Below are positions 1 to 15,577 of a stretch of 64,000 bases of DNA, one piece after another. Position numbers and translations under genes: made by a program. Under the pieces are notes generated by a model that saw only the letters and a program-made list of their open reading frames with translations, did no database searches and was not told where the DNA came from. The stretch comes from a virus. Lineage: Duplodnaviria > Caudoviricetes. The DNA lies in IMG/VR virus record IMGVR_UViG_3300021959_007005; one strand, given 5' to 3'. The stretch's first letter is position 1. Each line of letters starts with the position of its first letter.

Positions 1-136
1 TCCAAATTTCTGTAAAGCTAGACTCACGTGAATTACCAACACTATAATCATAAGATGCTAAACAACAGGGATAAACTTTGCCATTAGCAAAAGCATGTAA
101 GTGAATCCATGGGAGTATACACATGTTATCTTTCAT
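1..136 (-). CDS. Twitch/SPASM-domain radical SAM protein, N-terminus only (runs off the left edge; absent from the ORF track)
   Basis: Manual translation from the ATG at 136 gives MKDNMCILPWIHLHAFANGKVYPCCLASYDYSVGNSRESSFTEIW. This is the same C-x2-PW-x-H...G-x-V-x-PCC start as the neighbouring paralogues, and the start overlaps the stop of the preceding gene. Confidence 0.85.
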   Translation of the reverse strand, partial: MKDNMCILPWIHLHAFANGKVYPCCLASYDYSVGNSRESSFTEIW

Positions 137-1298
137 CATAACTCTCTTTTATAATGCTATAAAGCTCTGGAAATGTTTGTATGAAAGATTCTTTACGGTA
201 TTGGTCTGCTCCTCTAGTTTCTTGTACAAAGTTAGTAAATTGTTGATGGTCACCTGGTTGTTGTAAATGATTAACAATAGGTACAAGTGACTCGTCTGTT
301 AATTCATTTGAAATTTTTGATTTATACTCTTGTGGTATGTGCCTAATATCGTAGTGTTGTGGATAATAAACTATGTTATTAAAGATATATGTGTCAGGGA
401 ATTGGTTTAAGTATTTGTGAATCCTAGGCAGATAGTATATGTTTAGTGTACTAATAGTCACAGTAAAACTAATACCTAGTCGTACTCCCTGACTTTGTTG
501 AAGTTCACTAAACTTTCTAATATTATCGTCTGCTAGATTCCAACTTTTTCCATGGCGTATATAATTAAAATGATCTCCTATACCGTCTATACTAATGTTA
601 AGTCCAACTGTCTCGAAATTATCCAGCATTTTGTTTACAAAATCTTCATCAAACACTGTAGCGTTTGAACTAAAATTAAGACTAATATGTTTACTATTTC
701 CATTATCAATTAGCATGTTTACGAGTTTTCTAAAGTCTTTACTGTACAACGGCTCACCACCCATTATTTCTAATCGTTGTACTGTTTTACTCCAGTCATC
801 CAACTCAGTCCACATCTTACTTGTAATTTTATTGTTAAAGTCTACAGACATCTCTCGATGATCAAATTTGTGAACACGATCATTCCACTCAGTATTCCAT
901 TTGGTACTGTGTGTCGGGCCACAAGTTCTACACTTTAGATTACAAACATTACCAATGTTTATTTGTAGGTCTTTGGGTATAACTTGTAAATTATTATAAT
1001 CTACATTTATATTAAACGTCTTAAAGATATCATTGTATATTAAACGCTTACTTTGTTTACCATTACGTTCATCATTCCAACAAGTATTACAGTTACTAGG
1101 ATATTTTTCCTCTAACATATCTTTTCTAAGTTGAATCATAAACTCTGAATTTATAATGTCGTGTATGCTATCATCAGCAACATTCATTTTACGTTGGTCT
1201 TGTACAATAAGATCTTTAGCAATACAACAACTTCTAACAAACCCACTAGGCTCACTACTAGTATGCCCCCATGCTAAAGCACATAGATTCTTATTCAT
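126..1298 (-). CDS. Radical SAM protein with N-terminal Twitch/SPASM-like domain
   Basis: CNLKCRTC (CxxxCxxC) and MGGEP motifs; N-terminal CALAW...RSCC...CNTC. The start is moved to MNKNL (ATG at 1298), which overlaps the upstream stop (ATGAATAA). Confidence 0.9.
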   Translation of the reverse strand: MNKNLCALAWGHTSSEPSGFVRSCCIAKDLIVQDQRKMNVADDSIHDIINSEFMIQLRKDMLEEKYPSNCNTCWNDERNGKQSKRLIYNDIFKTFNINVDYNNLQVIPKDLQINIGNVCNLKCRTCGPTHSTKWNTEWNDRVHKFDHREMSVDFNNKITSKMWTELDDWSKTVQRLEIMGGEPLYSKDFRKLVNMLIDNGNSKHISLNFSSNATVFDEDFVNKMLDNFETVGLNISIDGIGDHFNYIRHGKSWNLADDNIRKFSELQQSQGVRLGISFTVTISTLNIYYLPRIHKYLNQFPDTYIFNNIVYYPQHYDIRHIPQEYKSKISNELTDESLVPIVNHLQQPGDHQQFTNFVQETRGADQYRKESFIQTFPELYSIIKESYDER

Positions 1299-2685
1299 AT
1301 CTACACCACCAGTCATACAACTCAGGGTCAGCACGATAAATGTCTTTTAATCTAAACTGTTCTTGTCTAATTTGATCTAACCTATCTTGATAACCTTTAC
1401 CGTTCTTAAATTTTTGCTCATGTGTGTCTGGAAATTGTTCAGCAAATGTCGGACGATTTTTCATTTCACTAAGTGTATTTACAAGAGTCATTTGTCGATG
1501 TGTAGCACGTGGTTCCATATACGCAAGTAATTGATCAATTTTACGATCTAATATATGCCTTGGCCATGCAAACGGACTCATTACAATGTCAGGATGAAAT
1601 GCAAACATAATTTTAGTTTCCATACTTACATCTAATTCTAAACTTAAATCAAATAAGTCACGTAAACTAAACATACCTGGACCAGTAATAGTTAAATCAA
1701 AACGCATTTTTTCTTTGCCGCCAGGTAGTGCTAATCCTTGCTTAAAGTTATCAAGCCATTCTTCCCATACAATGCCTTTGCGAATAAACTCTACAATATC
1801 TCCTGTACCATCAATGCTTGCACACATTAGCCAATCTTTAAACTGTGGTAAGTAATCATACAAGTTTTTTCCCTTGAAGTCAATCCTTGATAAATTACTA
1901 TTATAACGCAAGTAACAATTTTTCGCACTGCCGTTACGGGTCATTTCTTCTAGTGCCCACCAATGCATATCATACATTAGTGGCTCGCCGCCTACCCAAT
2001 ATATTTCTTCTACAATACCATCACTGATAGCTTGTTTAAATTCAGGCTCAGCTACATGCTTTTGGAAGTTATTCATTTTCTTTTTAACTTCAGGAATCAT
2101 AAATGGTTGGTGTTCAGGGCTCCATAAATCATGTTTCTTTTTTTCAGCTTCCCATGCACTGCTCAATTGCTCGCCGCACATTCGACATTTAAAGTTACAC
2201 AAATTACTATAACGATAGTCAAATGATATAGTAGGCATAGTTGTATAGCCATCATCATCTGTATTATCAAATGCTTCTTGTATTTTGTCTTTGAATAAGA
2301 CACCAGTGAACCATTTACGATATGAACTTAACGACAATGTATCATCATTGCATACATCACATTGACTAATACGCTCTCCTGCCATTAGTTTTTTTCGTAT
2401 GTCACGCATGTATTCACTGTTCCAATGTTCTTCTAGTGTAAGTGGATTAAACTTATCAGCGTCTGTCTCACTTTCACGTATTTCGCCATACTTTTCGTCA
2501 TTGGTTGCATCTATATATTGTTTTTGAAAGGCGTGTTCTTCTCTACTGGCACAACATAATCTGCGCTCTCCTTGTGGACTAATATAGGTGTGTGTCCACG
2601 GTGCCATACAAAACGTTTTGTTTTCACTATCTGCCGCACAGCTTCCATCGTTATTCCATTTTGGTTTAATTTTTGTCAATATCAT
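1291..2685 (-). CDS. Radical SAM protein with N-terminal Twitch/SPASM-like domain
   Basis: CNFKCRMC and VGGEP motifs; N-terminal CMAPWTH...RLCC...CDVC. Confidence 0.92.
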   Translation of the reverse strand: MILTKIKPKWNNDGSCAADSENKTFCMAPWTHTYISPQGERRLCCASREEHAFQKQYIDATNDEKYGEIRESETDADKFNPLTLEEHWNSEYMRDIRKKLMAGERISQCDVCNDDTLSLSSYRKWFTGVLFKDKIQEAFDNTDDDGYTTMPTISFDYRYSNLCNFKCRMCGEQLSSAWEAEKKKHDLWSPEHQPFMIPEVKKKMNNFQKHVAEPEFKQAISDGIVEEIYWVGGEPLMYDMHWWALEEMTRNGSAKNCYLRYNSNLSRIDFKGKNLYDYLPQFKDWLMCASIDGTGDIVEFIRKGIVWEEWLDNFKQGLALPGGKEKMRFDLTITGPGMFSLRDLFDLSLELDVSMETKIMFAFHPDIVMSPFAWPRHILDRKIDQLLAYMEPRATHRQMTLVNTLSEMKNRPTFAEQFPDTHEQKFKNGKGYQDRLDQIRQEQFRLKDIYRADPELYDWWCRYE

Positions 2686-3883
2686 ATTCCATAAACTCAG
2701 GCCATAGTTTTTTCCAACTGTTATTTCTTCTTATATCTAATTTAGATAGAAATTTTAACCCGTTTCTAAAATGCCATAACTCTGGCTCTGCACTATTCAT
2801 ATGTTCTAAGCAAGCATCTACTACTTTTCTTCTTTCATCAGCTATATCTAAATTATCTCTGTACTCTGAAAGTTCTGTAGTATACATATCTTTGATAGGT
2901 TTGGGTAAATTAACAGATGAAAATCGTTTAGGCTCTACTGCCATATTATATGTAAACTGCTGACTTCCCTTAGGCGCACGCCAATGAAATGGGTCCACAT
3001 GCATCTGATCAACAAGATAATCTAAGAATTTTGGTATATTCCTTATGCTTAAATTTGTTATTGTAATTTGTGGAAGTACATGTACTTCTGGCATTTCGTT
3101 TTTTATTGTGTGCCAGTTTTTTACAATCTTCTCCCAATTACTTCCGTAGCGTTGATACTCACCAATGTCGTCGACTGCATCGATACTTGCTCTTATACTA
3201 ACCCATTTAAATTGTTTCCATAGGTCTAGTATATCTATTTTTTTGTATTTTAGTGTTGACAAGTTAGTGTTATACTCAAGTTTTATATTAGACGCCAATC
3301 CTCGGCGCACTACTTCATTTAATAATGTGTAATGATATGGTGTCATCAAAGGCTCACCGCCTGCAAAGTAAATTACTTCTAGTTTGTTATCAACAATTGT
3401 TAAAATGTCTTGCTCTGTATTATTGGATAGTGTAATAAACTTACTGGCACCCTCTTTTACTTGATATTTTAGTGCAGATCCGTCTTCATACCAACTACTA
3501 CTAAGAGCATGCCCACACATTACACAAGCCATATTACACATATTACTACTTCGAATATCTAAATATCTTAATGCAAAGTCAGGTGTTGTATTTTCGGTTA
3601 TTAACTCGCCGTAATCATTATTCAACCGTGTTCTTAGACTGTTCCCATTTCCAAATTTTTCTTGATTATAACAAAACTTACAAGCATCTTGTAATTTACC
3701 ATCGAGAAGATCTTGTCTAAAATTACTCGCAGTATCACTTCGCCAAGCATCTTGCACAGACATTTCATTTGTATTTCCATAGTTAATACTTTGTGCAGTA
3801 CAACAAGGATTTACTTGACCGTCTGGGTGTATGTATAAGTGTACCCAAGGCGCAGCGCAAATTACTCCATTATCTTCTTTCAA
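2666..3883 (-). CDS. Radical SAM protein with N-terminal Twitch/SPASM-like domain
   Basis: CNMACVMC and AGGEP motifs; N-terminal CAAPWVH...DGQVNPCC...CKFC. Confidence 0.92.
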   Translation of the reverse strand: MKEDNGVICAAPWVHLYIHPDGQVNPCCTAQSINYGNTNEMSVQDAWRSDTASNFRQDLLDGKLQDACKFCYNQEKFGNGNSLRTRLNNDYGELITENTTPDFALRYLDIRSSNMCNMACVMCGHALSSSWYEDGSALKYQVKEGASKFITLSNNTEQDILTIVDNKLEVIYFAGGEPLMTPYHYTLLNEVVRRGLASNIKLEYNTNLSTLKYKKIDILDLWKQFKWVSIRASIDAVDDIGEYQRYGSNWEKIVKNWHTIKNEMPEVHVLPQITITNLSIRNIPKFLDYLVDQMHVDPFHWRAPKGSQQFTYNMAVEPKRFSSVNLPKPIKDMYTTELSEYRDNLDIADERRKVVDACLEHMNSAEPELWHFRNGLKFLSKLDIRRNNSWKKLWPEFMEYDIDKN

Positions 3884-5412
3884 ACTTCAACTCCACCTAA
3901 CGCATCCGTTTTTGTATCCCATCCGCCTATTGCTTCGTGTTCGTCATCACCACCTGTATATTCTTCAGTAGTGGCTGGATCACCAGCTCTATCATTTACA
4001 AAGATAGTTTCTTTATTTTCGATTTGTTTACGAGTTGGCACAATTGCATCAATACTTTCAAACCATTCAGCAAATGGACCTGGAAAAGTTTCTACAAAGT
4101 TTTTATTTCTACGCACATCATATTGGGCAAAGAATGCTTTAAAATCGTTGTATAGTTTAGGCATATCTGCTGTGTTTTTGTGAGGAGTTTTTACAATGTC
4201 CAAATAGTCTATAAGTCGCTGTACACTAGCACGTTCTCCATCATTTAACATTTGTTGAGGGCGTTCACTGTTAAACCATAACTGTAGCTTATCTTTATAG
4301 TGACGCTTAATTTCTACTGGAATAATTGCACAACTTTGAAAACTAGGAAAACGTAAAATGTTTAATGTCATAGTAGGCGCACGACGACCATAAGTTTCAC
4401 GCAAGTCTAACATTTCGTCCATAAACTCTGTAATAGTAGTTAAGCACAATGAATTGATTGTCATCATCATATGTAATTTAGATACATTTGATTCTTTAAG
4501 AACACGATGAATACTACTCATCCATAAATCATAATCTAGTCCATCACGTATATATTCTGCTTGTGGCTTTGTCGCTTCCATAGATGTGTAGATTTCAAAG
4601 TTAGGAACATGCCAAGACTTTTCAATTAACTTGTCTAGTACCTTAGGTGTTTGTGGCGACAAGTTACTATTAATAGCAAATCTCATTTGTCTGCCTCTAT
4701 AAGGATTCTGCTCGAACCAATCGAACAATTTCCACGTGCCTTTATGCATAATAGGCTCGCCGCCGGTAATACGAATTTCTTCAAGGTTGTCTGCTAATCC
4801 GTTCTCCCACCATTTATGAAATGCTTGTATGTATGGGTTGTCTTCTTGTTTCTTTGTTGCTGGTTCTGCCCAAGGAGCAGTATCTGAGAAATGACCACGA
4901 CCGTCACTTTGAATATTTTGATAAGCACCATAGTCGTTGATATCTTTAACCCAAGCTGTACTAAATGCTGGATTACAGTATGAACATTTTAAGTTACAAG
5001 CACGATCAAAAGAAATTTCAAGTGTACGCAACATAACATTGTCGTCCCACGGCATCTCTGTACTTTTGGTTATATCTTCGTCTTTGAAAATTTCAGTTTT
5101 AAACACACGATCACTGATGTGATCCTTACCCATGTCTTCAACTTTCCAACAGTATTCACACTCAGCAGGTCGTTCGCCTTTGAGCATCATTTTTCGCATT
5201 TTTTTCTTATGAGATGTATTATGAATAGCAGTATGATCTTTTTCAAGTTCATCCAATGGGATCCAATGTCCTGGTGGGTGATGGCAACTAGTAGTTTGTC
5301 CATGACCTAACCATATAGTAGCATTATACCACTTAGCCGCACAATAACTAGTACTAATACTATCAATCATACGTTCTTTATATGCCTGTAATGATTCGCT
5401 GTGTTTACGCAT
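3880..5412 (-). CDS. Radical SAM protein (KW/SCxHP subfamily)
   Basis: CNLKCSYC and TGGEP motifs; N-terminal CAAKW...TSCHHP...CEYCW. Confidence 0.92.
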   Translation of the reverse strand: MRKHSESLQAYKERMIDSISTSYCAAKWYNATIWLGHGQTTSCHHPPGHWIPLDELEKDHTAIHNTSHKKKMRKMMLKGERPAECEYCWKVEDMGKDHISDRVFKTEIFKDEDITKSTEMPWDDNVMLRTLEISFDRACNLKCSYCNPAFSTAWVKDINDYGAYQNIQSDGRGHFSDTAPWAEPATKKQEDNPYIQAFHKWWENGLADNLEEIRITGGEPIMHKGTWKLFDWFEQNPYRGRQMRFAINSNLSPQTPKVLDKLIEKSWHVPNFEIYTSMEATKPQAEYIRDGLDYDLWMSSIHRVLKESNVSKLHMMMTINSLCLTTITEFMDEMLDLRETYGRRAPTMTLNILRFPSFQSCAIIPVEIKRHYKDKLQLWFNSERPQQMLNDGERASVQRLIDYLDIVKTPHKNTADMPKLYNDFKAFFAQYDVRRNKNFVETFPGPFAEWFESIDAIVPTRKQIENKETIFVNDRAGDPATTEEYTGGDDEHEAIGGWDTKTDALGGVEV

Positions 5413-5454
5413 ATGTTTACTTGTCCTTCATTCTATAATACTTCTATTTAATTT

Positions 5455-6993
5455 CTAAGATGATGTATAACAATCATTCCACCAACCACTAAGCTCTGGA
5501 AATACTTCAATAAAGTTTGTATTTCTTCTATCATCAATTTGATTAAAATATTCCCAAAACTGTTTCTGCCGAAGTTGCAATTCATCTTCACTAATCGATT
5601 CTGCTCCCGACTTAATCCATGCAATGTCCCTTTTAACTTTTTCAATTTCATGATCTAAAAATCCATGAAAAGTTGTATCATAATCTTCTTTAGCTCGATT
5701 ACTTTCCATAAATTCTACAGCATCTTCCATATACTTCATTACCTCAGGTATATAATGTATGTTCTGTGCAGACATCCATGTAGGCTGCCTAAGATAAGGT
5801 ATATCAAAATATATACGTTGTCTCTGATATCTCACAAATGGACCTCGGTGTTTTCCTGTTTCATCAATAGGAGAATCATTTACAATATTTTGATTATCAA
5901 ATCCAAACTCTACTCGAAGATCTAATATCATTTGTAAGTATTGTTGTATTCTCGGAATACTTAGTAAGTTAAATGTGTTAATAAAAGTGACACTAGTTCC
6001 TGTAGTCTCAGATAATATGCGCTTTGTATTATTTAACACGACATCATAATCCATACCAGTACGAATATATTCAGCTTGTTCTCCTACACTATCAAAACTA
6101 ACAAACAAATTAAAATGTTTGATAGCAGGTGCAACAAAAAAGTTATTATCAGTATAAGGATTAATTTTATTTTTATCTTCCCAGATCCTTGTTGTTTCTA
6201 TCTCTTGAAGATGTTCAACAAATTTATCAAAAAGTTTAGGTTGAGGAGGACACATATTACTAGTAATACTAATTTCAATATCTTGATTAGGATTGTCGTT
6301 TACATATTTTAATACTTTGAATGTATTTTTATCCATGAGAGGTTCGCCACCTGTCATACGAAATATCTTCAAATCTTTGTATAGGTCAGGCCACCACTTC
6401 CAAAATGCTTCCACATATGGGTTTTCTTTTGCAGCGCCTTTAATCGGCATCAGTCCTATTTTGTCTAAATGTTCTTTATCATTATGCACAAAGTCTGTTA
6501 AGTGGAATGCTCCATGATCGTCAATCTCTTTTTCCCATTCAGTACTCAAATGCGGACTACAATATGTACACTTGAAGTTACATGCTTGATTAAAATTTAC
6601 CTCTACGTAACGTGGATTAATGTTTTCATCCCAACTGCCTTCCAATACCTCATTCCAGCCGTCAGTTCCTACCCATTCTTCCCCACTTCGATAATGTCTA
6701 TCACTCAGATCCCCTTGATCTTCTAATTTCCAACAGTAACTACATCCTGCTGGCCTTTTACCTTCAAGCATTTCTTTACGCTGTAATGCTTTTTCTTGAG
6801 TATTGTGTAATGCCTTAGGATTATTTTTTAACTCACTAAGCGGTATTTTATGCGTAGGTGGATGATAACAGCTCTGAGTCAGTCCTTGCGGTAAGTGCAG
6901 ACTAACTTGTAGCCACTTAGCCATACACATGCTGGGACTAATATCATTTAGCTTTTCTTTAGTACGTTGTGCATTAGAAAGATAATCTTTCAT
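5455..6993 (-). CDS. Radical SAM protein (KW/SCxHP subfamily)
   Basis: CNFKCTYC and TGGEP motifs; N-terminal CMAKW...SCYHP...CSYCW. Confidence 0.92.
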   Translation of the reverse strand: MKDYLSNAQRTKEKLNDISPSMCMAKWLQVSLHLPQGLTQSCYHPPTHKIPLSELKNNPKALHNTQEKALQRKEMLEGKRPAGCSYCWKLEDQGDLSDRHYRSGEEWVGTDGWNEVLEGSWDENINPRYVEVNFNQACNFKCTYCSPHLSTEWEKEIDDHGAFHLTDFVHNDKEHLDKIGLMPIKGAAKENPYVEAFWKWWPDLYKDLKIFRMTGGEPLMDKNTFKVLKYVNDNPNQDIEISITSNMCPPQPKLFDKFVEHLQEIETTRIWEDKNKINPYTDNNFFVAPAIKHFNLFVSFDSVGEQAEYIRTGMDYDVVLNNTKRILSETTGTSVTFINTFNLLSIPRIQQYLQMILDLRVEFGFDNQNIVNDSPIDETGKHRGPFVRYQRQRIYFDIPYLRQPTWMSAQNIHYIPEVMKYMEDAVEFMESNRAKEDYDTTFHGFLDHEIEKVKRDIAWIKSGAESISEDELQLRQKQFWEYFNQIDDRRNTNFIEVFPELSGWWNDCYTSS

Positions 6994-8175
6994 TTAATGT
7001 CCTTTAATATTTTATTTTTTGGCAGTCTTTCCATACTGCACTTAGTTCAGGGAAAGTTTTAACAAAACTTGTGTTACGTCTGGAATCTAGTTGTTTAAAG
7101 TAATTATAAAATTGAAACTTTCTATTTTTTGCATCGCCTAATTTAATCTTAGAATTTTTAATAATTGAAATGTTTCTTTTTACTTTAGCTATTTCAAACT
7201 GTGTAAACCCTAATCCTTGCTCCGTCTCTTGGTTTTGCTGCATAAACTTAACACAATCGTCTAGAATATCTAGCATATCTGGATAAAATACAGCAAAGTC
7301 TGCATTCATCCAAATTGGTTCTCTGAGTAGTGGAATATCAAACCAAATTCGACATCGATCTTTACTTTCACTAAATTTCATTTTAAGTTCTAGTATATAC
7401 TCTAAAAAATGTTTGAATCCAGTGATACTTAAAAAATTGAAAGTGTTAATAAAAGTTATCTCACTGTTTTTTGTATTACGTAAAAACTTATGTACGTTAT
7501 CTTGAAACACTTGCCAATCTAATCCATTACGTATATATTCCGCTTGTTTTCCCACACTATCTATACTTGCAAAAAGCATAAAGTTTTTGATTCTGGGAAC
7601 GTTTAACATGACTCCCTGATTGCCTTCTTCATCGCTTGGTGGTGCACCTAAGCACTTCCATTCTAGATTTTCATCTGGTTTAAACCAAATAAGTGTATAC
7701 AAAAAATCTCCATGTTCGGTTCTGTTTCTACTGTCAAATTCTAATCCAATATCTTCTAGTGTTAAACGCTGTTTTTTTGGATCAATAGTAGGATCGTCTA
7801 CAGTAGAGTCATCTAATACAATAGCCCTTTGCCAATTCTGCCAATTAATATCTGGATCAGATTCAGCAAAATAAGTAACTTCTTTTAAAATTCCACGATC
7901 AATCCAGTCATTATAAACTTCTTGTGTAATATCATTTTCGATATTTTTAATATTAGTTATAAACTGATCAAAAAGTTTAGGTTGAGGAGGACACATGTTA
8001 CTAGTAATACTAAGCTCAAGTAATTGATTAGGATTCTTGTTTACATAATCTAATACTTTGAATGTATTTTTGTCCATAAGGGGCTCACCGCCTGTCATGC
8101 GAAATACTTTAAGATCACTATATAGGTCAGGCCACCACTTCCAAAATGCTTCCACATATGGGTTTTCTTTTGCAG
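6380..8175. repeat. 55-nt identical direct repeat (6380-6434 and 8121-8175) within two paralogous radical SAM genes
   Basis: tataggtcaggccaccacttccaaaatgcttccacatatgggttttcttttgcag occurs at both positions, 1741 nt apart. Confidence 0.9.
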
Positions 8176-8746
8176 TGCTTTTAATGGGCATTAGTCCTTT
8201 ATCAACAAGTGAATCAATATCATTATGTTTATTATAGCCTATATTAACTGGGCCGAATTTGTCAATCTCTTTTTCCCATTCAGTACTTAGATGAGGACTA
8301 CAGTAGGTACATTTAAAATTACAACTTTGGTTAAAGTTTACTTCCACATAATGAGGATTAATGTTTTCATCCCAACTGCCTTCTAAAACTTTATCAAATC
8401 CAGATTGCGCCCAGCCTTCTCCACTTCGATAATGCCTATCACTCAAATGTCCTTGATCTTCAATCTTCCAGCAATAACTGCATCCCGTGGGTCGTTTTCC
8501 CTCCCACATTTTTTTTCTTTCAAGAACTTTATGTACAGTATTGTGAAGTGCTCGTGGATTATTTTCAAGCTCAGATAATGGGATATTGTGTACAGGAGGA
8601 TGATAACAACTTTGTGTAAGTCCAGCGGGTAAATGTATACTAACTTGTAGCCACTTAGCTAAACAAAAACTGGTACTAACAGAGGACAATTGTTGTTTGA
8701 TTTCATCTTCGCCGTCAAGATTACGTGAAATTGAAAATTTAGCCAT
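7004..8746 (-). CDS. Radical SAM protein (KW/SCxHP subfamily), close paralogue of 5455-6993 with a large insertion
   Basis: CNFKCTYC and TGGEP motifs; N-terminal CLAKW...SCYHP...CSYCW; long stretches identical to the 5455-6993 protein. Confidence 0.92.
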   Translation of the reverse strand: MAKFSISRNLDGEDEIKQQLSSVSTSFCLAKWLQVSIHLPAGLTQSCYHPPVHNIPLSELENNPRALHNTVHKVLERKKMWEGKRPTGCSYCWKIEDQGHLSDRHYRSGEGWAQSGFDKVLEGSWDENINPHYVEVNFNQSCNFKCTYCSPHLSTEWEKEIDKFGPVNIGYNKHNDIDSLVDKGLMPIKSTAKENPYVEAFWKWWPDLYSDLKVFRMTGGEPLMDKNTFKVLDYVNKNPNQLLELSITSNMCPPQPKLFDQFITNIKNIENDITQEVYNDWIDRGILKEVTYFAESDPDINWQNWQRAIVLDDSTVDDPTIDPKKQRLTLEDIGLEFDSRNRTEHGDFLYTLIWFKPDENLEWKCLGAPPSDEEGNQGVMLNVPRIKNFMLFASIDSVGKQAEYIRNGLDWQVFQDNVHKFLRNTKNSEITFINTFNFLSITGFKHFLEYILELKMKFSESKDRCRIWFDIPLLREPIWMNADFAVFYPDMLDILDDCVKFMQQNQETEQGLGFTQFEIAKVKRNISIIKNSKIKLGDAKNRKFQFYNYFKQLDSRRNTSFVKTFPELSAVWKDCQKIKY

Positions 8747-8751
8747 AATGT

Positions 8752-9732
8752 CTATTCAATACTGTCGTTGACTTGTTCTTCACGTACCATTGCACCCAAT
8801 CTATGTGGATTCTTGTATACGGTCTTAAAGAATCTACTGCCAACCCTTCCCATATCTGCAATTTCTAAGTCTAATACTGAACGAAGGTTTTCGCCTATCT
8901 CTATAGTTTTTGCTGTTACCTTGTCAATATCCCATGATACACCAGTGTTTACACACAATTCATTTCCGCCCTCAAACTCTGGGAATAACTCAGTTGTAAA
9001 GTAATTACTAAGCCAATCAAAGTCACGCACATTTTTCCAATCCCATGCATTACGTTGTATATTAGTCATTTGGCATCCAAGTCGTGCACCATACATTGCC
9101 CAAATTCCATTAGTAACGTCTTCGCCAACACTCATCCATACCATCAGTCTCTTATAATTTTCACGATATATGTGTTTAAGTTTTGCAGGATCAACTACAT
9201 TGCCATCTTCTAGTCCCATCTTAACACCTTCACGAAACCCTGCACGCCAAGCCTGTAGTGGGCTACCATTGTTCATTACATCACAGTAAATATTATTCAT
9301 TTGTACATAGTTAATATTCCAACAAAAGTCAACCTGTGCTCTTTTATCACTTGCAGGGGCGGCTTCATGTGTACGCATACGGTTAACAACATCAACGGGC
9401 CAACATTTAATACCGCCGTTACCATATACCAAACCATTTACTGTATTTTTACCTGCCCAACTAATGACGTCATTGCTTTTGATTCGGTCCATATCAACTT
9501 CTACATTGAAAAAATCTTCTTTTACTACATTATCAGCATCAATAGTAATAAATCGTTCAGTGTCACTCATAGCAGCGGCGGCTTTATGTGCGGCGTCACT
9601 TCCCCATACTCCATGACTTCGTTTAGCCCAAGGCGCCTTTTCAAGTAAGTCTGAATAATTTTCATCAGCATTAGGCTCGTCATAGCTAATAAAAATTATA
9701 TCAAATTCAGTAATTGGTACTAAATTTGTCAT
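8752..9732 (-). CDS. Glycosyltransferase family 2-like (GT-A fold) protein
   Basis: N-terminal FDIIFISYDEPNA strand-helix and a DxD motif (ITIDADN). Confidence 0.7.
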   Translation of the reverse strand: MTNLVPITEFDIIFISYDEPNADENYSDLLEKAPWAKRSHGVWGSDAAHKAAAAMSDTERFITIDADNVVKEDFFNVEVDMDRIKSNDVISWAGKNTVNGLVYGNGGIKCWPVDVVNRMRTHEAAPASDKRAQVDFCWNINYVQMNNIYCDVMNNGSPLQAWRAGFREGVKMGLEDGNVVDPAKLKHIYRENYKRLMVWMSVGEDVTNGIWAMYGARLGCQMTNIQRNAWDWKNVRDFDWLSNYFTTELFPEFEGGNELCVNTGVSWDIDKVTAKTIEIGENLRSVLDLEIADMGRVGSRFFKTVYKNPHRLGAMVREEQVNDSIE

Positions 9733-10715
9733 ATTGTAATCTCCTCTTGTGCAAACGTAATATTGCGTATATTGTCTGATACTAATATTTTACATTGATC
9801 TACATTGTCAGTCAAGTTTAAATTTATTTCTTGTTTCCAACCTATTTTTTCAAATGGTATTTTTATTGTTGATAATAAGCTATTTGGATCTTTTTTAGTA
9901 ATATAAAAAGTCAAGTCTCCAAAAATTTTATGTTCCTGTGGATCACTAAAATTACTACGCATAACCCATCCATTAGTTGTATTACTTATTACAAATGTCG
10001 GTACTTGAATTTGTCCAGGTTCATAAATTTTAGCATGATATCGTTTATGACTTTTATTACTTGTATACTCAGCACCAACAAAATATTCCTTAGTTCTAAT
10101 AGAATAACTTTTAAAAATTCTTCTTGTTAAAATTTGTATATCATCTAAACTACATATCGTTCTCAGATGACTCATATCAAAAATACGAAATCCATCATTC
10201 ATAAGATCAATAGGATCAATTTCATATGTAGACATCAGATAGCTTGGGTTCTTTTTACTAATCAGATAAAATTTAATTTTACTATACTGACTTTGCGAAC
10301 TTTGTTTTTTAACGTGTCGAGCACCAGTCATTCTATATACTGTGTCTTGATTAAAATTTACTTCCATTTTCCAATCATTTGTATACAAGATAATGTTAAC
10401 GTCACAATTTTTGTTATGATACTCAGGTATCATACTAAGTTGGTCTTCTTCCTTTTTAATGGTAAGTTTTTTACTTTTCGCCATCAAGACGAATCCATCT
10501 TTACTCTCAGACACAACAAAACGGCGTGGGTCTAATTCCCCAAGCATTATTTTTCTAGCATTGTCGTCATTAGTCTTAAGATAAGAATGCTTGCTAGGTT
10601 TTGGTTTATTTGAAATTTCAACAACCTGACCATCCCATTCTTCATAGTATACAAAGTAATCAGCTGGAGGTTTATCCACTATATATTCACTTAGTGACAG
10701 AAAGTTTGAGGTCAT
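9729..10715 (-). CDS. Hypothetical protein within the radical SAM/GT operon
   Basis: 328-aa ORF overlapping both neighbours; no motif recognised. Confidence 0.75.
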   Translation of the reverse strand: MTSNFLSLSEYIVDKPPADYFVYYEEWDGQVVEISNKPKPSKHSYLKTNDDNARKIMLGELDPRRFVVSESKDGFVLMAKSKKLTIKKEEDQLSMIPEYHNKNCDVNIILYTNDWKMEVNFNQDTVYRMTGARHVKKQSSQSQYSKIKFYLISKKNPSYLMSTYEIDPIDLMNDGFRIFDMSHLRTICSLDDIQILTRRIFKSYSIRTKEYFVGAEYTSNKSHKRYHAKIYEPGQIQVPTFVISNTTNGWVMRSNFSDPQEHKIFGDLTFYITKKDPNSLLSTIKIPFEKIGWKQEINLNLTDNVDQCKILVSDNIRNITFAQEEITI

Positions 10716-11556
10716 CTATTATTTCTTTCGTTATAAATTGCTCGTCACCGTAATGAATAATTCCAGAAGACAATTTATGATTTTCTATAATTATATCACC
10801 ATCATCAGTGTACCAACTGTTAAGCATTTCTGTCCAGTTTTTTGGAATATCAGAGTGCCATAATCCTTGACTACGATTATCAAGATCATAAAAATCATCC
10901 ATCCAAATACCAATGTTATCTTCTTGGTTTAGTAAGTATGTTACAATATTTGTTAAAACATTCTTATTAAAAGTTTCTGGTCTTTTCTCATTGAATATTT
11001 TTGCATACATATCTCGCCAGTTTTGAAAAACTGGATCTGCCATTTTAAACCATTCAATAGCCTCATCAGTTGATTTATCAAAGTATATCAAATGACTATA
11101 ATGTTGTGATAGTTTGTAATGACTTTCAAATTCAAATTTACTGGTTTTCTGTGCAATTCCATTTCTAAAATTTCTAGCAACAATAGGCATAGCTATACTT
11201 TTGTTTTTAAATTGTTGCCAAAAAAGGTCTATATCAACATTTAAAAATAACATATCATTATCAATATACACTGTTTCATTGAAAGGAGAACAATGATACA
11301 TTTGCCATAAATTCGTGCCATGAAATCCATCTTTATATGCTGAATTACCAAATTTTAATTCAGTTATATAATCAAAAACATCATGGTATACGTCCGGTAC
11401 ATCGTCAAGTTTTCCCTGATCGACCACTAAGCATATTTCAGAATTAGGGTCACACTTTTTAATACTACATGCTAATGCATAATTATATTGAATTTGGTCA
11501 GTTTCAGTATTAATTCCCAGTGTTATGAATCCTCTACTCATACTCTTCATCTCCAT
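10687..11556 (-). CDS. GT8-like glycosyltransferase (GT-A fold), putative
   Basis: RGFITLG...YALACSIK start and a DxD motif in SPFNETVYIDNDML. Confidence 0.65.
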   Translation of the reverse strand: MEMKSMSRGFITLGINTETDQIQYNYALACSIKKCDPNSEICLVVDQGKLDDVPDVYHDVFDYITELKFGNSAYKDGFHGTNLWQMYHCSPFNETVYIDNDMLFLNVDIDLFWQQFKNKSIAMPIVARNFRNGIAQKTSKFEFESHYKLSQHYSHLIYFDKSTDEAIEWFKMADPVFQNWRDMYAKIFNEKRPETFNKNVLTNIVTYLLNQEDNIGIWMDDFYDLDNRSQGLWHSDIPKNWTEMLNSWYTDDGDIIIENHKLSSGIIHYGDEQFITKEIIDDLKLSVTK

Positions 11557-12460
11557 TTAATACTTTTAATGAGTGTGCTAACTCTTTAAGAATACCTGGT
11601 GCATGTCGAGCCAATGCACGTTTATTCATAATATGCAGATTTTCATTTTCAGTTCTGACTAATAAATTTTTCCATTGTTCTTGTCGATTATGTGCCAAGA
11701 AAGTCCAATCGTTTATATTTTTAACTCTGATTAAATCATCTTTCTGATCCATATTTACAAGCGGAATATTTTTAAAATCATGTACCAGGTTATTACTATT
11801 AAACCCATTTAGCATATGGGCAGCAATACTTACACAAAAATCTGTTCTAAATAAACTAGGAGGAAACTGATAGAGCAAATGATAATACTCCCAATTTTCT
11901 TTAACATGAGCCCACATATCAAAGAATATTTTACTCTCATCAGATTTATCAAAGTAAACAGCGGTACTCCACCAGTGATGAATGCCAGCTTCATTTAGTT
12001 GTTGCTCATTTAGATATGGAGGTGTAAAATCCAAATACCTTGCAGTACGATGCATACCCAATGATACGTCACTTTCAAACAAATAATTGTAAAAATTATT
12101 TTGTATTATATAATCACTATCAATTAATAGTGTTTTATCAAAAGGAGTAAGATTAAAGATGTCATTTTTATTTTTATTACTAAACTGTGCAGCAAATTCA
12201 GTCCAAGGACTGTCATAATGTTTACGTGGATTGGGATCATGGTCAATTTCATGTGCGATTACATAATCAAAAAACAGAGATTGCATATCCTCAGTCATGC
12301 TCTGTTCCATCCAGGACACCGTGCCAGTATCAGTAATTAATGCGACTTCAATATTTTTCATATTGAGTTTAGCATATCCAGCTGCAATAGATGCAAATTG
12401 TAGATAATCAAGCTGACTATTGTTGTAGGCAATTATTGCAACACCTTGCTTGCTACTCAT
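11534..12460 (-). CDS. GT8-like glycosyltransferase (GT-A fold), putative
   Basis: QGVAIIAYNN start and a DxD motif in TPFDKTLLIDSDY; appears paralogous to 10687-11556 (WENVKENW vs FQNWRDMY region). Confidence 0.65.
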   Translation of the reverse strand: MSSKQGVAIIAYNNSQLDYLQFASIAAGYAKLNMKNIEVALITDTGTVSWMEQSMTEDMQSLFFDYVIAHEIDHDPNPRKHYDSPWTEFAAQFSNKNKNDIFNLTPFDKTLLIDSDYIIQNNFYNYLFESDVSLGMHRTARYLDFTPPYLNEQQLNEAGIHHWWSTAVYFDKSDESKIFFDMWAHVKENWEYYHLLYQFPPSLFRTDFCVSIAAHMLNGFNSNNLVHDFKNIPLVNMDQKDDLIRVKNINDWTFLAHNRQEQWKNLLVRTENENLHIMNKRALARHAPGILKELAHSLKVLNGDEEYE

Positions 12461-12463
12461 TTT

Positions 12464-12811
12464 CTACCAATCCATTAACTTTTTAACACTTCGAGCTCTG
12501 TTAATTTTTTCTATTTGTGTTTTATATTCATTTGTTGCTGCCTGATATGCTTCAAGCAATTCACGACAAAAATCTTCCAAGTCCTCAATCAAAATTGGAT
12601 TATCTTTGATATCTAGTATAACACTTGATTTTTTTCCATGTTGTATTAATGCGTTAACAAATCCAATAGTATGTGAATCAGCCATAAACGTGCCCTTTTC
12701 ATAATGCACAGTTTGTATGACATTCATTCTACTTCTAATTTGTCTTTTTTGGTTGCCTAAGGTTGTTCTATAATTAGCAAATTCTAACGCTTTCTCTAAA
12801 CGTTCGTCCAT
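12464..12811 (-). CDS. Hypothetical phage protein, first gene of the operon
   Basis: 115-aa ORF with an AGGAG ribosome-binding site upstream. Confidence 0.75.
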   Translation of the reverse strand: MDERLEKALEFANYRTTLGNQKRQIRSRMNVIQTVHYEKGTFMADSHTIGFVNALIQHGKKSSVILDIKDNPILIEDLEDFCRELLEAYQAATNEYKTQIEKINRARSVKKLMDW

Positions 12812-12839: not shown

Positions 12840-12868
12840 ACTATAACTTATTTAGTAGTAAATGTCAA
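12840..12868 (-). promoter_or_regulatory. Composite promoter: sigma70-type TTGACA-17-TATAGT with a nested late-type CTAAATA
   Basis: Minus strand: -35 at 12863-12868, -10 at 12840-12845, TAAATA box at 12849-12855; lies in the gap upstream of 12811. Confidence 0.65.
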
Positions 12869-12875
12869 CGGAACT

Positions 12876-14027
12876 TTATGGAGTATTATCATCACTTGTG
12901 TTAAAACTATTTGTAACTTGACATGTGGGTACTGGATTAACATCAAATTCTGCATCTTTATATGTAACAATATCTGGCATTAATAAACTAAGATTGGCAG
13001 TTGTAACACCGTCAACATATTGTGCTAAACTAGTATCATCAAGAACTAGTTTAAAGTGAACTTCCTTACCACCATTGGCCCACTTTCCGTAAAGTTTAAA
13101 TTTCATACTTTGGTATGCGCCACCGTATCCACTATATCCACTATATCCTGTTGGACTAATTCCAATACCAGAGTATGCAGACCCGCCTCCGTCTACATAT
13201 ATGTAATCGCCACTAGCTCCCCCATAACCATAACCATAGCCATAACCACTTATTGTTACTCCGCTGCTAGTATAAAGTAGACCTTCATTATGATACCCAG
13301 CATCTGATCCATCACCATAATTTTCGGTTAGGTCATAAAACCCCTTGCCTTCACTAGTACCACCAGTAAATGCAGCACTTTCGAAAACATTATCATATGT
13401 AAAGTTTAACTGACCCATTTCATTTAAAATATCACTCCAGTTATAATAACCAGCAGTTGACCCACCGGTGATATTCATACTAACACGAAGTTGCCCGCCG
13501 CCGTTGAAAAAATATCTAGCATGATTATAACTATTGAATGTCCACTTATGCTCGCCATTTAATTGGTGTTGCCAAACACTGGTCCTATTATATGCTGGAC
13601 CTGTTGGTGTTATAATAAGACTACTAGCATTCGCTGCATCTACTGTTAAATGGTTATTGTTTATTAATAAGGTATTAAACTTTGATTCAACTAAATTTAA
13701 ATCTTCAGCACGTATTAAGCTATACTTAACAACATCAGTACGTCCTGTAGGTACATTAAAAATTAATATAGTATCAGGTAAAATGGTTCTATCTGTACTG
13801 ACATTTGTGCGTTCAACTAAATCTTGCAATCTTTCAGCAGTAATATCAGTACCAATAGTTAATGCATCTTCTATATTTACAGCACCCCAACCGAACTTAT
13901 GTGTTAATGCACGATTAGCATCTGTGACAGATGCAGTACTATATTTGTCACCAAATATCTTGTTAACAACTTCTGCAACGCTGTTGTATTCCGATGCTAA
14001 TACAACGGTATTGGGGCTAGCCACCAT
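12876..14027 (-). CDS. Putative virion structural (tail/baseplate) protein with a Gly/Tyr/Ser-rich segment
   Basis: Located in the tail module; Ser/Thr/Gly/Asn-rich composition; GYGYGYGYGG...GYSGYSGYGG stretch. Confidence 0.6.
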   Translation of the reverse strand: MVASPNTVVLASEYNSVAEVVNKIFGDKYSTASVTDANRALTHKFGWGAVNIEDALTIGTDITAERLQDLVERTNVSTDRTILPDTILIFNVPTGRTDVVKYSLIRAEDLNLVESKFNTLLINNNHLTVDAANASSLIITPTGPAYNRTSVWQHQLNGEHKWTFNSYNHARYFFNGGGQLRVSMNITGGSTAGYYNWSDILNEMGQLNFTYDNVFESAAFTGGTSEGKGFYDLTENYGDGSDAGYHNEGLLYTSSGVTISGYGYGYGYGGASGDYIYVDGGGSAYSGIGISPTGYSGYSGYGGAYQSMKFKLYGKWANGGKEVHFKLVLDDTSLAQYVDGVTTANLSLLMPDIVTYKDAEFDVNPVPTCQVTNSFNTSDDNTP

Positions 14028-14028
14028 A

Positions 14029-14946
14029 TTACTTTACTCCGACTACTACTTCAATTGTACCTGCCTCGTCAGTATCTTTACTTTCAAGAGCTCTACCAAT
14101 TATCCTTCTATAGTCATCTAATTCTAATTGACTTGCACCTCTTGCATGCCCCGTTATATCACTGCTAACTAATCTCTGACCTTTTTTAATCTTCCCAACT
14201 ACCTTACATGGTACTCTGCCAGCTAATGCAATAAATGGATGTGTTGTATCTGTTCCTGCTGAACTATTCATTTCAAATCCTGGTGCTGTACTTACTATTC
14301 CAAACACTTCATTATCTAAATCAAAAATAGTTTGGGTTACTTCTGCATCCCCGCCTAATCTTACAATAGTACCAGCATCATATTCTGCATCTGCTGCATA
14401 ACGCTCTGCAAGGTCAGCATATTCTGCACTTGTGGCAATGCCTCTAAATTTATAATTAACTGTATTATTAAGTTGTATACCAGCTTGTATTACTGGATAC
14501 TGTGTGGTAAGTGCTGTTACATTATCTTCCAAATATTCAGTTGCATGCGGTGTCCATGCTGTTGTGTCATCAGTTATAATACTAACAATTTGTCCATCAA
14601 CAACAGTCTCAATTGTCTTATGATAATTTAATAAGGTATCTTGTCTATTTCTATATTCAATCCGTGTATCTCCAGCCGGAGCACCAATTGAATACCATTT
14701 GCCACTTTCGTATATCATTAGTGTGTTGTTTGCTGTATCATACCAAAGTTGTCCTTCAGTAGGATTACTGGGTGCGGATCCATTAGCAAAATTTTCTAAT
14801 AAATGTAGTAAATCTTCGTTTAATGCTTCGCCAAACGCTGTATAATTTTTACCAATAAGTTTTAAACTGGTACTAGTGTTAACTGTCCCATCGTTTACTA
14901 CTATTTGCGTCTTTGTACTATCTGAAAAGTCTAATGTATATGGCAT
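14029..14946 (-). CDS. Virion fibre-like protein with a C-terminal intramolecular chaperone (peptidase G2-like autocleavage) domain
   Basis: YADLAERY...GIVSTAPG...ALAGRVPCKVVG..KKGQRLVSS pattern; N-terminal NPTEGQLWYDT fibre motif. Confidence 0.7.
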   Translation of the reverse strand: MPYTLDFSDSTKTQIVVNDGTVNTSTSLKLIGKNYTAFGEALNEDLLHLLENFANGSAPSNPTEGQLWYDTANNTLMIYESGKWYSIGAPAGDTRIEYRNRQDTLLNYHKTIETVVDGQIVSIITDDTTAWTPHATEYLEDNVTALTTQYPVIQAGIQLNNTVNYKFRGIATSAEYADLAERYAADAEYDAGTIVRLGGDAEVTQTIFDLDNEVFGIVSTAPGFEMNSSAGTDTTHPFIALAGRVPCKVVGKIKKGQRLVSSDITGHARGASQLELDDYRRIIGRALESKDTDEAGTIEVVVGVK

Positions 14947-14957
14947 GTTTTTTCCTA

Positions 14958-15548
14958 TTATATATCCTGGAAACTAGTTCTTATTCTTAGAGTGTATACT
15001 ACTTGAATTTTTCTATTAGCACTCTTTTGTACTGGATGAAAAACAACATGTGTTAGTAAGTCACCGTTTGCACTATAAATTCCTAGCTCATCGAAAATAT
15101 ATGTTCCTGTCTGTGATGTGGCTGTATCAGTGGCATCTTGTCCTGCTGGTACATTATAGTCTAATGTACACGTTACTTCTACGTCACTATATGTATTATT
15201 GGCAGTATGAGATACTGCACTTTTATTATATGCATCTGCTGCATCTACATTAGCAGTATGTGTAGAATTGTATAACGTTCCTGATGATGAACTAGTATTT
15301 GGCACTTTATATGTTACTGTACCAAGCCCATCTATAGTTGTGCCGCCATTACCAAATCGCATAGTCCCAATTTGATGTGTGCTTGTAGATCCTGCTTTGT
15401 TAGATAACAAGTTTGCTATAGCAATACTCATATTTTCAAAATTAACAGCATTGCGTCTGCGTACTAATACTTCACCTGATACAGGATCCCATATTTTAAT
15501 ATGTCCTTCAATCCCAATCATTGTGTCTTCTCTCTGTGATAAACTCAT
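14958..15548 (-). CDS. Putative baseplate/tail structural protein
   Basis: ORF in the tail module with a FDELGIY...LLTHVVF motif typical of fibre-attachment proteins; TATAAATA upstream. Confidence 0.55.
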   Translation of the reverse strand: MSLSQREDTMIGIEGHIKIWDPVSGEVLVRRRNAVNFENMSIAIANLLSNKAGSTSTHQIGTMRFGNGGTTIDGLGTVTYKVPNTSSSSGTLYNSTHTANVDAADAYNKSAVSHTANNTYSDVEVTCTLDYNVPAGQDATDTATSQTGTYIFDELGIYSANGDLLTHVVFHPVQKSANRKIQVVYTLRIRTSFQDI

Positions 15549-15569: not shown

Positions 15570-15577
15570 TATTTATA
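15570..15577 (-). promoter_or_regulatory. T4-type late promoter TATAAATA
   Basis: Exact match to the T4 late consensus in the intergenic gap upstream of 15548. Confidence 0.65.

Follow-up and report, generated by a model that had tools for sequence, protein, structure and literature searches.

Why would a marine phage carry a long row of radical S-adenosylmethionine (SAM) enzymes beside its tail genes, and on what do these enzymes act? This question is raised by 64,000 nucleotides of viral DNA (hereafter the window), which represent the reverse strand of the 197,947-bp IMG/VR record IMGVR_UViG_3300021959_007005 and cover record positions 46821–110820. The record is about 55% complete as estimated by CheckV, and the absence of a gene from it carries little weight. 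We favour the reading that the array contributes to a radical tailoring pathway, soluble and of several steps, whose substrate is a glycan made by the phage, and we place the probability of this reading at roughly 55%.

The array and its enzyme family

There are seven radical SAM open reading frames (ORFs) on the minus strand of the window, of which six are complete (126–8746) and one is cut by the window edge (2–139). Neighbouring frames either overlap by 4–44 nucleotides or are separated by gaps of 5–42 nucleotides. The six complete ORFs match the NCBIfam model NF033640 (N_Twi_rSAM, hereafter N-Twi) with scores of 302.2–343.9 bits and E-values of 1e-90 to 1e-103, wherein the whole-protein cut-off of the model is 170 bits. 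All copies in the array belong to this one family, which is catalogued but has no assigned reaction. The likeness to the family is a full-length match that includes the N-terminal Twitch module, the radical SAM core and the helical C-terminal architecture. However, bacterial members are usually encoded by single genes, whereas this phage has 14 diverged copies that are linked to transferases.

A CX3CX2C motif occurs once in each complete ORF, at residues 116–163, and GGEP is present in all six. The cysteines of CX3CX2C are invariant in an alignment of 43 sequences, and the other invariant positions are C27, C68, C71, the GGE residues, and the polar residues R84, N207, S233, D235 and R245. Each enzyme is predicted to possess a SAM-cleaving [4Fe-4S] site. 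The Pfam domain Radical_SAM (PF04055, threshold 29.5 bits) is reported in all six proteins, above threshold in three (43.5, 31.1 and 42.3 bits) and below it in three long copies (27.4, 25.5 and 18.9 bits) that NF033640 covers with more than 300 bits. Besides Twitch and the radical SAM core, there is no Pfam or NCBIfam domain in the six proteins.

Ahead of the CX3CX2C motif, every complete ORF carries a cysteine set with the pattern C-x17/18-C(C)-x40-64-C-x2-C. Pfam SPASM matches residues 9–113 in three copies and also the fragment at the window edge. Over its first 77 positions, the family profile can be aligned with the Twitch domain at the C-terminus of BtrN (4m7t residues 184–257; domain E-value 1e-6), including the cysteine ligands. 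The CX5CX3C continuation of a full SPASM domain is absent, with only C-x12-G-x4-C and C-x2-C (4–5 cysteines) being present, and TIGR04085, which represents full SPASM with two auxiliary clusters, gives 19.6 bits, under its cut-off of 27. Because this continuation is missing, the module is predicted to be a Twitch with one auxiliary cluster and four conserved cysteines rather than a full SPASM.

An AlphaFold model of the 405-amino-acid enzyme (2666–3883; pLDDT confidence score 93.9) begins with a Twitch, continues with a partial TIM-barrel core and ends in a helical domain. Its nearest folds in Foldseek and VIA searches are anSME (Z 12.4), BlsE (12.2) and CteB (11.9), followed by viperin and MoaA. 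Neither search gives a specific neighbour among solved structures, both returning generic SPASM/Twitch radical SAM cores only, and the structural matches are limited to this core with template-modelling (TM) scores of 0.3–0.4. Characterised families are likewise not reached by sequence. MoaA scores 30–37 bits against a cut-off of 284, PqqE 20.5 against 381, NirJ 36 against 515 and the tungsten-cofactor maturase model W_rSAM_matur 50 against 380, and viperin is likewise ten-fold below its own cut-off in the NCBIfam search of the six proteins.

An earlier note on this DNA, made from the sequence without database searches, had anticipated much of the above. The ORF listing agrees with its seven consecutive, mostly overlapping minus-strand genes of which one is truncated, and the six complete genes each have the CxxxCxxC and GGEP motifs that it reported. 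The cysteine-rich N-terminal module that it saw is present in all seven genes, but only the Twitch half of its SPASM/Twitch label survives. The placement in a characterised housekeeping family that it thought might undo its proposal was not found, given that MoaA and PqqE are far below their cut-offs. Its count of ‘at least seven’ enzymes is too low. The array runs on beyond the window to give 8 contiguous N-Twi genes (the six complete in the window, the one cut by its edge and one more beyond it). Across the whole record, the NF033640 cut-off is exceeded by 13 genes and missed by one N-Twi-like gene, for a total of 14 of the N-Twi type. By motif count there are 21 CX3CX2C radical SAM genes in the record, all between 102 and 149 kb. 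The 8 contiguous N-Twi genes are followed by a 309-amino-acid protein without a family match and then by a radical SAM enzyme with a classical C-terminal Twitch. Another of the 21 encodes a KedN5-like B12 radical-SAM methylase. At record 132–149 kb, a second cluster holds six N-Twi-type genes, three with a C-terminal Twitch and two other radical SAM genes. A perfect match to the sigma-70 promoter consensus (TTGACA-17-TATAAT) is located at the head of this second cluster, at record 130051 on the plus strand.

The array is genuine and is not an assembly artefact, because the gene order is unchanged in a Tara scaffold of 97% identity and contigs from independent marine runs match the array with 0–3 mismatches. 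Its GC content is that of the remaining phage sequence. No match to the 8.7-kb array region was found by megablast among 50,697 phage records. At least 14 studies (2015–2024) include near-identical phage sequence, in at least 16 public runs of marine, seawater or estuary origin. Metatranscriptome contigs from two libraries cover the whole 16 kb, although such libraries can contain DNA, so that the coverage need not reflect transcription.

The copies in the array are mutually 19–31% identical, with the exception of the pair formed by 7004–8746 and 5455–6993, while orthologues in other viral contigs are 64–85% identical. When clustered at 40% identity, the 14 copies fall into 13 clusters, and four of these types (R512, R510, R464 and R394) are common to many viral loci. 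The copies are therefore old, individually conserved paralogues rather than products of recent amplification, and the low identity among paralogues relative to the identity of up to 85% among orthologues is as expected for enzymes that carry out distinct steps. Thus, the description of the enzymes as distinct holds in so far as they are diverged and old, but all derive from one family.

The individual genes are considered here in order from the window edge, all on the minus strand. The cut gene (2–139) includes only the first 46 codons, which match Pfam SPASM (E-value 7e-10) and NF033640 model positions 1–45. Its full form (record 110682–111866) encodes 394 amino acids, scores 414 bits on NF033640 and is of the R394 type, which is common to phages and bacteria. 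The next gene (126–1334; 314.7 bits) has 402 codons as its longest ORF, and its likely start is the ATG at 1298, located 12 codons into this frame. It has CX3CX2C at residue 131, GGE at 192 and N-terminal cysteines at 18, 36, 37, 82 and 85. It is followed by the R464-type gene (1291–2685; 464 amino acids, 330.2 bits), which is 85% identical to its orthologue in other viral loci, and by the gene for the 405-amino-acid protein chosen for modelling (2666–3883; 343.9 bits). At 40% identity, the R510-type gene (3880–5412; 510 amino acids, 313.3 bits) clusters with 31 copies from the viral loci sampled, and its best viral match is 64% identical. The cluster of the R512-type gene (5455–6993; 512 amino acids, 307.9 bits) has 71 such copies. 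Finally, the product of 7004–8746 (580 amino acids) matches NF033640 with 302.2 bits in two stretches, since the match is split by some 130 inserted residues (roughly 270–400) that its R512 neighbour lacks. These two proteins are 73% identical over their first ~250 residues, or the N-terminal half, and 7004–8746 is best viewed from its sequence as a recent duplicate of the R512 type.

A conserved cassette beside the tail-fibre genes

The array belongs to a widely conserved cassette, which marine T4-like phages carry in the region of their tail-fibre and host-recognition genes. The window itself derives from a T4-like myovirus, as it encodes a baseplate wedge, a hub/lysozyme, a portal, a major head protein and a gp46-like nuclease. 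Following transcription, the baseplate wedge gene comes first, then a giant ORF of 3745 amino acids, genes of 196, 305 and 383 amino acids, a gene of 115 amino acids, two of about 300, one of 328, one of 326 and finally the radical SAM genes.

Three of the genes that precede the array are predicted to encode glycosyltransferases (GTs). The first (8752–9732, minus strand), encoding 326 amino acids of a family we call A2, was assigned from its model (pLDDT 88.6) and from fold searches. Foldseek gives TarP, SunS/ThuS and PBCV-1 A64R with a probability of ~1, and VIA gives Z 10.0 to B4GALNT1 and Z 8–10 to many GT-A enzymes over residues 4–155. The D65-x-D67 residues are invariant in the alignment, and the Atlas lead is ‘GT2-like’. 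A comparison of the A2 profile with PDB sequences yielded no meaningful match. The protein thus has a GT-A fold with a DxD motif and is probably a nucleotide-sugar-dependent transferase. The other two are GT8-like and share the profile of a second family, A3. GT8-like transferase b (10687–11556, minus strand; 289 amino acids) has a D-x-D at residue 108 and homologues in 49 of 80 viral loci. GT8-like transferase a (11534–12460, minus strand; 308 amino acids) has a D-S-D at 114–116, wherein D116 is a nearly invariant alignment column, and its homologues are in 54 of 80 loci. The A3 profile, made from 25 sequences of this 308/289-amino-acid family, matches glycogenin-1 residues 3–120 (E-value 3e-6).

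These assignments required profiles and folds because Pfam and PHROGs gave only fibre-like matches for the eight upstream genes. The co-directional glycosyltransferases proposed in the earlier note are thus supported by evidence to which those two databases are blind. Likewise, its placement of the array next to tail genes is borne out, since baseplate, giant-protein and fibre-like genes are upstream of the cassette.

Co-occurrence was counted in the best 80 IMG/VR N-Twi loci, within 10 kb on either side. Two or more N-Twi copies are present in 72 of these 80 loci, and four or more are present in 53. The A2 family is found in 63, and A2 and A3 are found together in 57, such that the array does keep its transferases in relatives, a linkage whose loss the earlier note would have counted against its proposal. 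By comparison, A2 and A3 are both present in only 5 of 77 bacterial N-Twi loci from species-representative genomes, and 64 of the 77 have a single N-Twi copy. The five full-cassette bacterial loci are mostly on short contigs of metagenome-assembled genomes (MAGs), binned as Verrucomicrobia, Legionellales, Haliscomenobacter and Rickettsiales (GTDB), and may be phage DNA that was binned into MAGs.

Most of the 13 loci that were mapped share a recurring order: a fibre-like gene, a small gene termed PRE (115 amino acids), GT8a, GT8b, a second small gene termed MID, the GT-A gene, R512, R510, R394 copies and R464. R512 is the first copy after the GT-A gene in most of these relatives, and a UDP (uridine diphosphate)-sugar dehydrogenase and a carbamoyltransferase are often downstream of R464. 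In another phage-like contig, N-Twi genes are interleaved with a nucleoside diphosphate (NDP)-sugar 4,6-dehydratase, a DegT aminotransferase, an RmlD-like reductase and a TylC3-type sugar C-methyltransferase, and a cytidylyltransferase/mannose-P-isomerase-like gene is also among the sugar-nucleotide genes interleaved in relatives. Some bacterial copies adjoin genes for an ABC-transporter ATPase, a GT2 or a carbamoyltransferase.

The family is large. Clustered at 50% identity, it comprises at least 8,236 representatives that match at an E-value of 1e-30 or better, and at least 593 IMG/VR stretches encode N-Twi relatives. Among metagenomic sequences there are polypeptides of ~800–1400 amino acids that hold two or three complete N-Twi modules in tandem, and in one protein the module is fused to a class I methyltransferase.

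The remaining genes of the region, all on the minus strand, are as follows. In this genome, PRE is the conserved 115-amino-acid protein at 12464–12811, recognized through a hidden Markov model (HMM) match in its own genome. It is directly ahead of GT8a in 48 viral loci, and its Atlas clusters are virus-only with a DUF4376 lead at 0.89. PRE is possibly a fibre-assembly-type or fibre-chaperone-like protein. MID is a second small conserved cassette protein, which is ~115 amino acids like PRE. A 328-amino-acid protein (9729–10715) has no Pfam, PHROG or Atlas match and has homologues in 5 of 80 viral loci. We rejected the idea that it is a triple repeat of the MID family, which found no support in HMM searches. 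Between the giant gene and the cassette are the three genes of 383, 305 and 196 amino acids (12876–15548), with homologues in 39 of 80 loci, and the 305-amino-acid product (14029–14946) matches PHROGs for a virion structural protein (E-value 1e-10) and a tail fibre protein (E-value 5e-6). The giant ORF (15594–26831), which immediately follows the gene for the baseplate wedge, probably encodes the VrlC-like giant found in marine T4-like phages.

A candidate sigma-70-like promoter (12840–12868, minus strand; TTGACA-17-TATAGT, 11 of 12 matches to the consensus) is located in the 64-nucleotide gap ahead of the transferase and radical SAM block. A dyad, ACTACTA-N9-TAGTAGT, extends across its spacer and -10 box. 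We found no dyad operator shared among the sigma-70-like promoters of the record, wherein the ACTACTA dyad occurs in this promoter alone. A T4-type late-promoter box, TATAAATA, is present at 15570–15577 on the minus strand, 22 nucleotides ahead of the 196-amino-acid gene. This box is depleted in the window, with 4 copies versus 12.6 expected by chance.

Candidate substrates

How might such a cassette tailor a glycan? Each N-Twi enzyme would abstract a hydrogen from a sugar carbon, either on a nucleotide-sugar or on a sugar that has already been transferred, and the Twitch cluster would serve as an electron conduit by analogy with BtrN. Perhaps the outcomes, at different positions, are oxidation, epimerisation, deoxygenation, or C–C or C-methyl chemistry. 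The three transferases would assemble the glycan on a cytoplasmic acceptor. Substrates could be supplied by the UDP-sugar dehydrogenase, the carbamoyltransferase, the B12 radical-SAM methylase, and the sugar-phosphate isomerase and epimerase, while SAM synthetase would supply SAM and a methylthioadenosine/S-adenosylhomocysteine (MTA/SAH)-type nucleosidase, acting on 5'-deoxyadenosine, would remove by-products.

Genes that could fill these supporting roles are found in the record. Between and after the radical SAM clusters there are genes for a UDP-glucose/guanosine diphosphate (GDP)-mannose dehydrogenase, a ribulose-phosphate 3-epimerase and a SIS isomerase, and also for a small P-loop kinase, a carbamoyltransferase, a nitroreductase and cupin hydroxylases. 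Within the second radical SAM cluster, record 144467–145021 encodes a 184-amino-acid PNP_UDP_1 protein that is closest to MTA/SAH nucleosidases (116 bits on NF004168, cut-off 129). Enzymes of this nucleosidase family clear 5'-deoxyadenosine, and the phage protein may remove this inhibitory by-product. A SAM synthetase (MetK) is encoded at record 170500–171600 (S-AdoMet_synt_C 195 bits, open frame of 363 amino acids), which fits a high demand for SAM because there are 21 radical SAM enzymes in addition to methyltransferases. The 198 kb of this incomplete record yielded no genes for flavodoxin, 2Fe-2S ferredoxin or IscA-type proteins. Between record 95 and 150 kb there are no transmembrane-like segments except in one 131-amino-acid protein with a hydrophobic N-terminus. 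Amid the sugar-metabolism genes there is also an HNH endonuclease gene (record 127084–127530), whose position suggests a mobile insertion. Just past the island, record 151929–154220 encodes a SET-domain protein, a fatty-acid desaturase with three hydrophobic segments and a second Asp/Asn beta-hydroxylase-like cupin.

The acceptor of the glycan can be named only tentatively. We lean towards a virion protein, such as one of the neighbouring fibres, because of the conserved place of the cassette beside fibre genes, the soluble nature of the enzymes and the possibly fibre-chaperone-like 115-amino-acid protein. Even so, this specific acceptor is a candidate that may well prove wrong. The host envelope is less probable still, but it stays in play because a sigma-70-like promoter heads the cassette and because modification of the host O-chain has been suggested for pelagimyophages (PMC7029224). 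A bolder and rather doubtful version of the proposal is that the paralogues form a combinatorial ‘radical glycan editor’, wherein each enzyme would make a different C–H functionalisation of a phage-built chain on fibres or other virion proteins, and wherein gain or loss of cassettes would re-code the virion surface. If so, cassette turnover in this hypervariable region would alter host range or the evasion of defences, and the enzymes would represent a new class of carbohydrate radical chemistry in abundant ocean viruses.

Several points weigh against a glycan substrate. Because no NF033640 member has a known substrate, the case for action on a sugar is drawn from gene neighbourhood alone, and among SPASM/Twitch enzymes peptide maturases are commoner than sugar enzymes. 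The annotated bacterial contexts, mostly single genes, are without obvious glycan neighbours (e.g. in Reichenbachiella). No nucleotidyltransferase adjoining the array was found in the record. Neither Pfam (E-value of 0.01 or below) nor PHROGs provides a family for the three transferases, and the GT8 match is modest at 3e-6. Finally, the predicted timing of expression is ambiguous because a sigma-70-like promoter heads the cassette while the T4-type late box sits further upstream.

The rival that best withstands the evidence is one in which the N-Twi enzymes are protein maturases that introduce cross-links, epimerisations or other radical changes into fibre-like proteins or the 3745-amino-acid giant, with the transferases acting separately. 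Fibre-like structural genes adjoin the array, the small conserved PRE and MID proteins (~115 amino acids each) travel with the cassette, and the record holds other protein modifiers, namely two Asp/Asn hydroxylases and a SET-domain protein. The best structural neighbours of the modelled enzyme also include the peptide maturases anSME, CteB, SkfB, SuiB and ChlB, but these matches cover nothing more specific than the generic core (TM 0.3–0.4). Moreover, we saw no recognition (RRE) domain of the kind used with ribosomally synthesized and post-translationally modified peptides (RiPPs) and no precursor-like ORF rich in cysteine, serine or threonine, and the PRE and MID consensus sequences show no such motif, although the substrate could also be a protein encoded further away. 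The paralogous enzymes of other phages are interleaved with sugar-nucleotide enzymes. We therefore consider this explanation unlikely.

More unlikely is a pathway whose product, a small molecule that either diffuses or stays inside the cell, acts on the host or on competitors. Such a product could resemble an aminoglycoside or a nucleoside, or be a modified nucleotide. The Twitch module is nearest in sequence to that of BtrN, an enzyme of an aminoglycoside pathway, BlsE from a nucleoside-antibiotic pathway is among the best folds, and all the enzymes appear to be soluble. Viperin and MoaA, whose substrates are nucleotides, also give weak HMM matches, but both score 10-fold under their cut-offs. 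The tight linkage of three transferases to fibre genes in the structural region is unexpected for a metabolite pathway, and no exporter or self-resistance gene was recognized.

The last alternative, in which the enzymes hypermodify bases of the phage DNA and the transferases place sugars on them, would recall the T4-type phages that glucosylate their own DNA, although to our knowledge GT8 and GT-A are not among the folds of DNA glucosyltransferases. A small P-loop kinase in the island and the involvement of radical SAM enzymes in the hypermodification of thymidine by other phages (PMC5889632) could be cited in its favour. We regard it as very improbable, and the hypermodified base once offered as a target finds no support, given that the cassette is in the tail-fibre module apart from the replication genes, and that ThyX (for ordinary dTMP, thymidine monophosphate) is present while the 198 kb of this ~55% complete record yielded no pyrimidine hydroxymethylase of the ThyA type.

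Relation to known systems

If the enzymes do tailor a glycan, then the array is best read as joining two known kinds of system, phage glycan islands and radical SAM enzymes that act on sugars. The latter are few, and each of them (BtrN, DesII, AprD4 and BlsE) has revealed new chemistry. BtrN, the 2-deoxy-scyllo-inosamine dehydrogenase of butirosin biosynthesis (PDB 4M7T/4M7S), is the founding Twitch enzyme. Its Twitch sequence and cysteine ligands are like those of the N-Twi enzymes, one auxiliary cluster is present in both, and its substrate is a carbohydrate, the class that we propose for the N-Twi family. However, the Twitch of BtrN is C-terminal, whereas that of the N-Twi enzymes is N-terminal, a permuted order accompanied by an extra C-terminal helical domain. 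BtrN is also not in the listed fold matches of the N-Twi model, whereas anSME and BlsE are (Z ~12).

Viruses that build a glycan with their own enzymes provide the same concept. The GT-A fold of the 326-amino-acid protein is shared with PBCV-1 A64R, which functions in capsid glycosylation, and with phage TarP, at an identity of just 11–15%. We know of no radical SAM enzymes in these glycosylation systems.

The closest genomic parallel is the hypervariable host-recognition cluster of pelagimyophages, which is arranged around the giant VrlC gene and holds tail fibres, many glycosyltransferases (GT8 being the commonest) and lipopolysaccharide-type sugar genes (Zaragoza-Solas et al. 2020, PMC7029224). 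That report notes in passing that radical-SAM cassettes distinguish two related genomes, and ascribes the transferases to modification of the host O-chain without a test. It gives the radical SAM genes no family name, copy count, conserved cassette or role, in contrast to what is described here. Literature searches on N_Twi_rSAM, or on Twitch together with phage or polysaccharide, returned nothing on function. Thus, the earlier note's remark that it knew of no characterised pathway with this layout needs to be narrowed, since radical-SAM cassettes had been mentioned in PMC7029224, but it stands for function, family and cassette definition, on which we found nothing in the literature.

The interest of phage N-Twi arrays is that each brings together 4–14 diverged members of a family without a known reaction, in linkage with transferase and tail-fibre genes. 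If their product is a glycan of the virion or of the host surface, then the arrays bear on how abundant marine phages recognize hosts or exclude competitors, and a large set of enzymes would be opened to biochemistry.

Cultured phages make the question testable. Of the 41 matching records, 40 are KVP40-like Vibrio phages and one is labelled only ‘Marine’. The Schizo-T4 Vibrio phages (KVP40, nt-1, K566 and relatives) have 1–4 N-Twi copies with 23–26% identity, some in small arrays, that are annotated merely as MoaA/NifB/PqqE family or hypothetical proteins. They differ from the marine cassettes in that no A2 or A3 homologues adjoin these genes. Members with 2–4 copies are suited to experiment, and Vibrio phage K566 is a possible model. 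There are four clustered N-Twi genes in this phage (OZ196521.1 161548–168284), with neither the GT8 nor the GT-A family beside them. An annotation for a PagP-like lipid A acyltransferase is located 3 kb downstream of this cluster.

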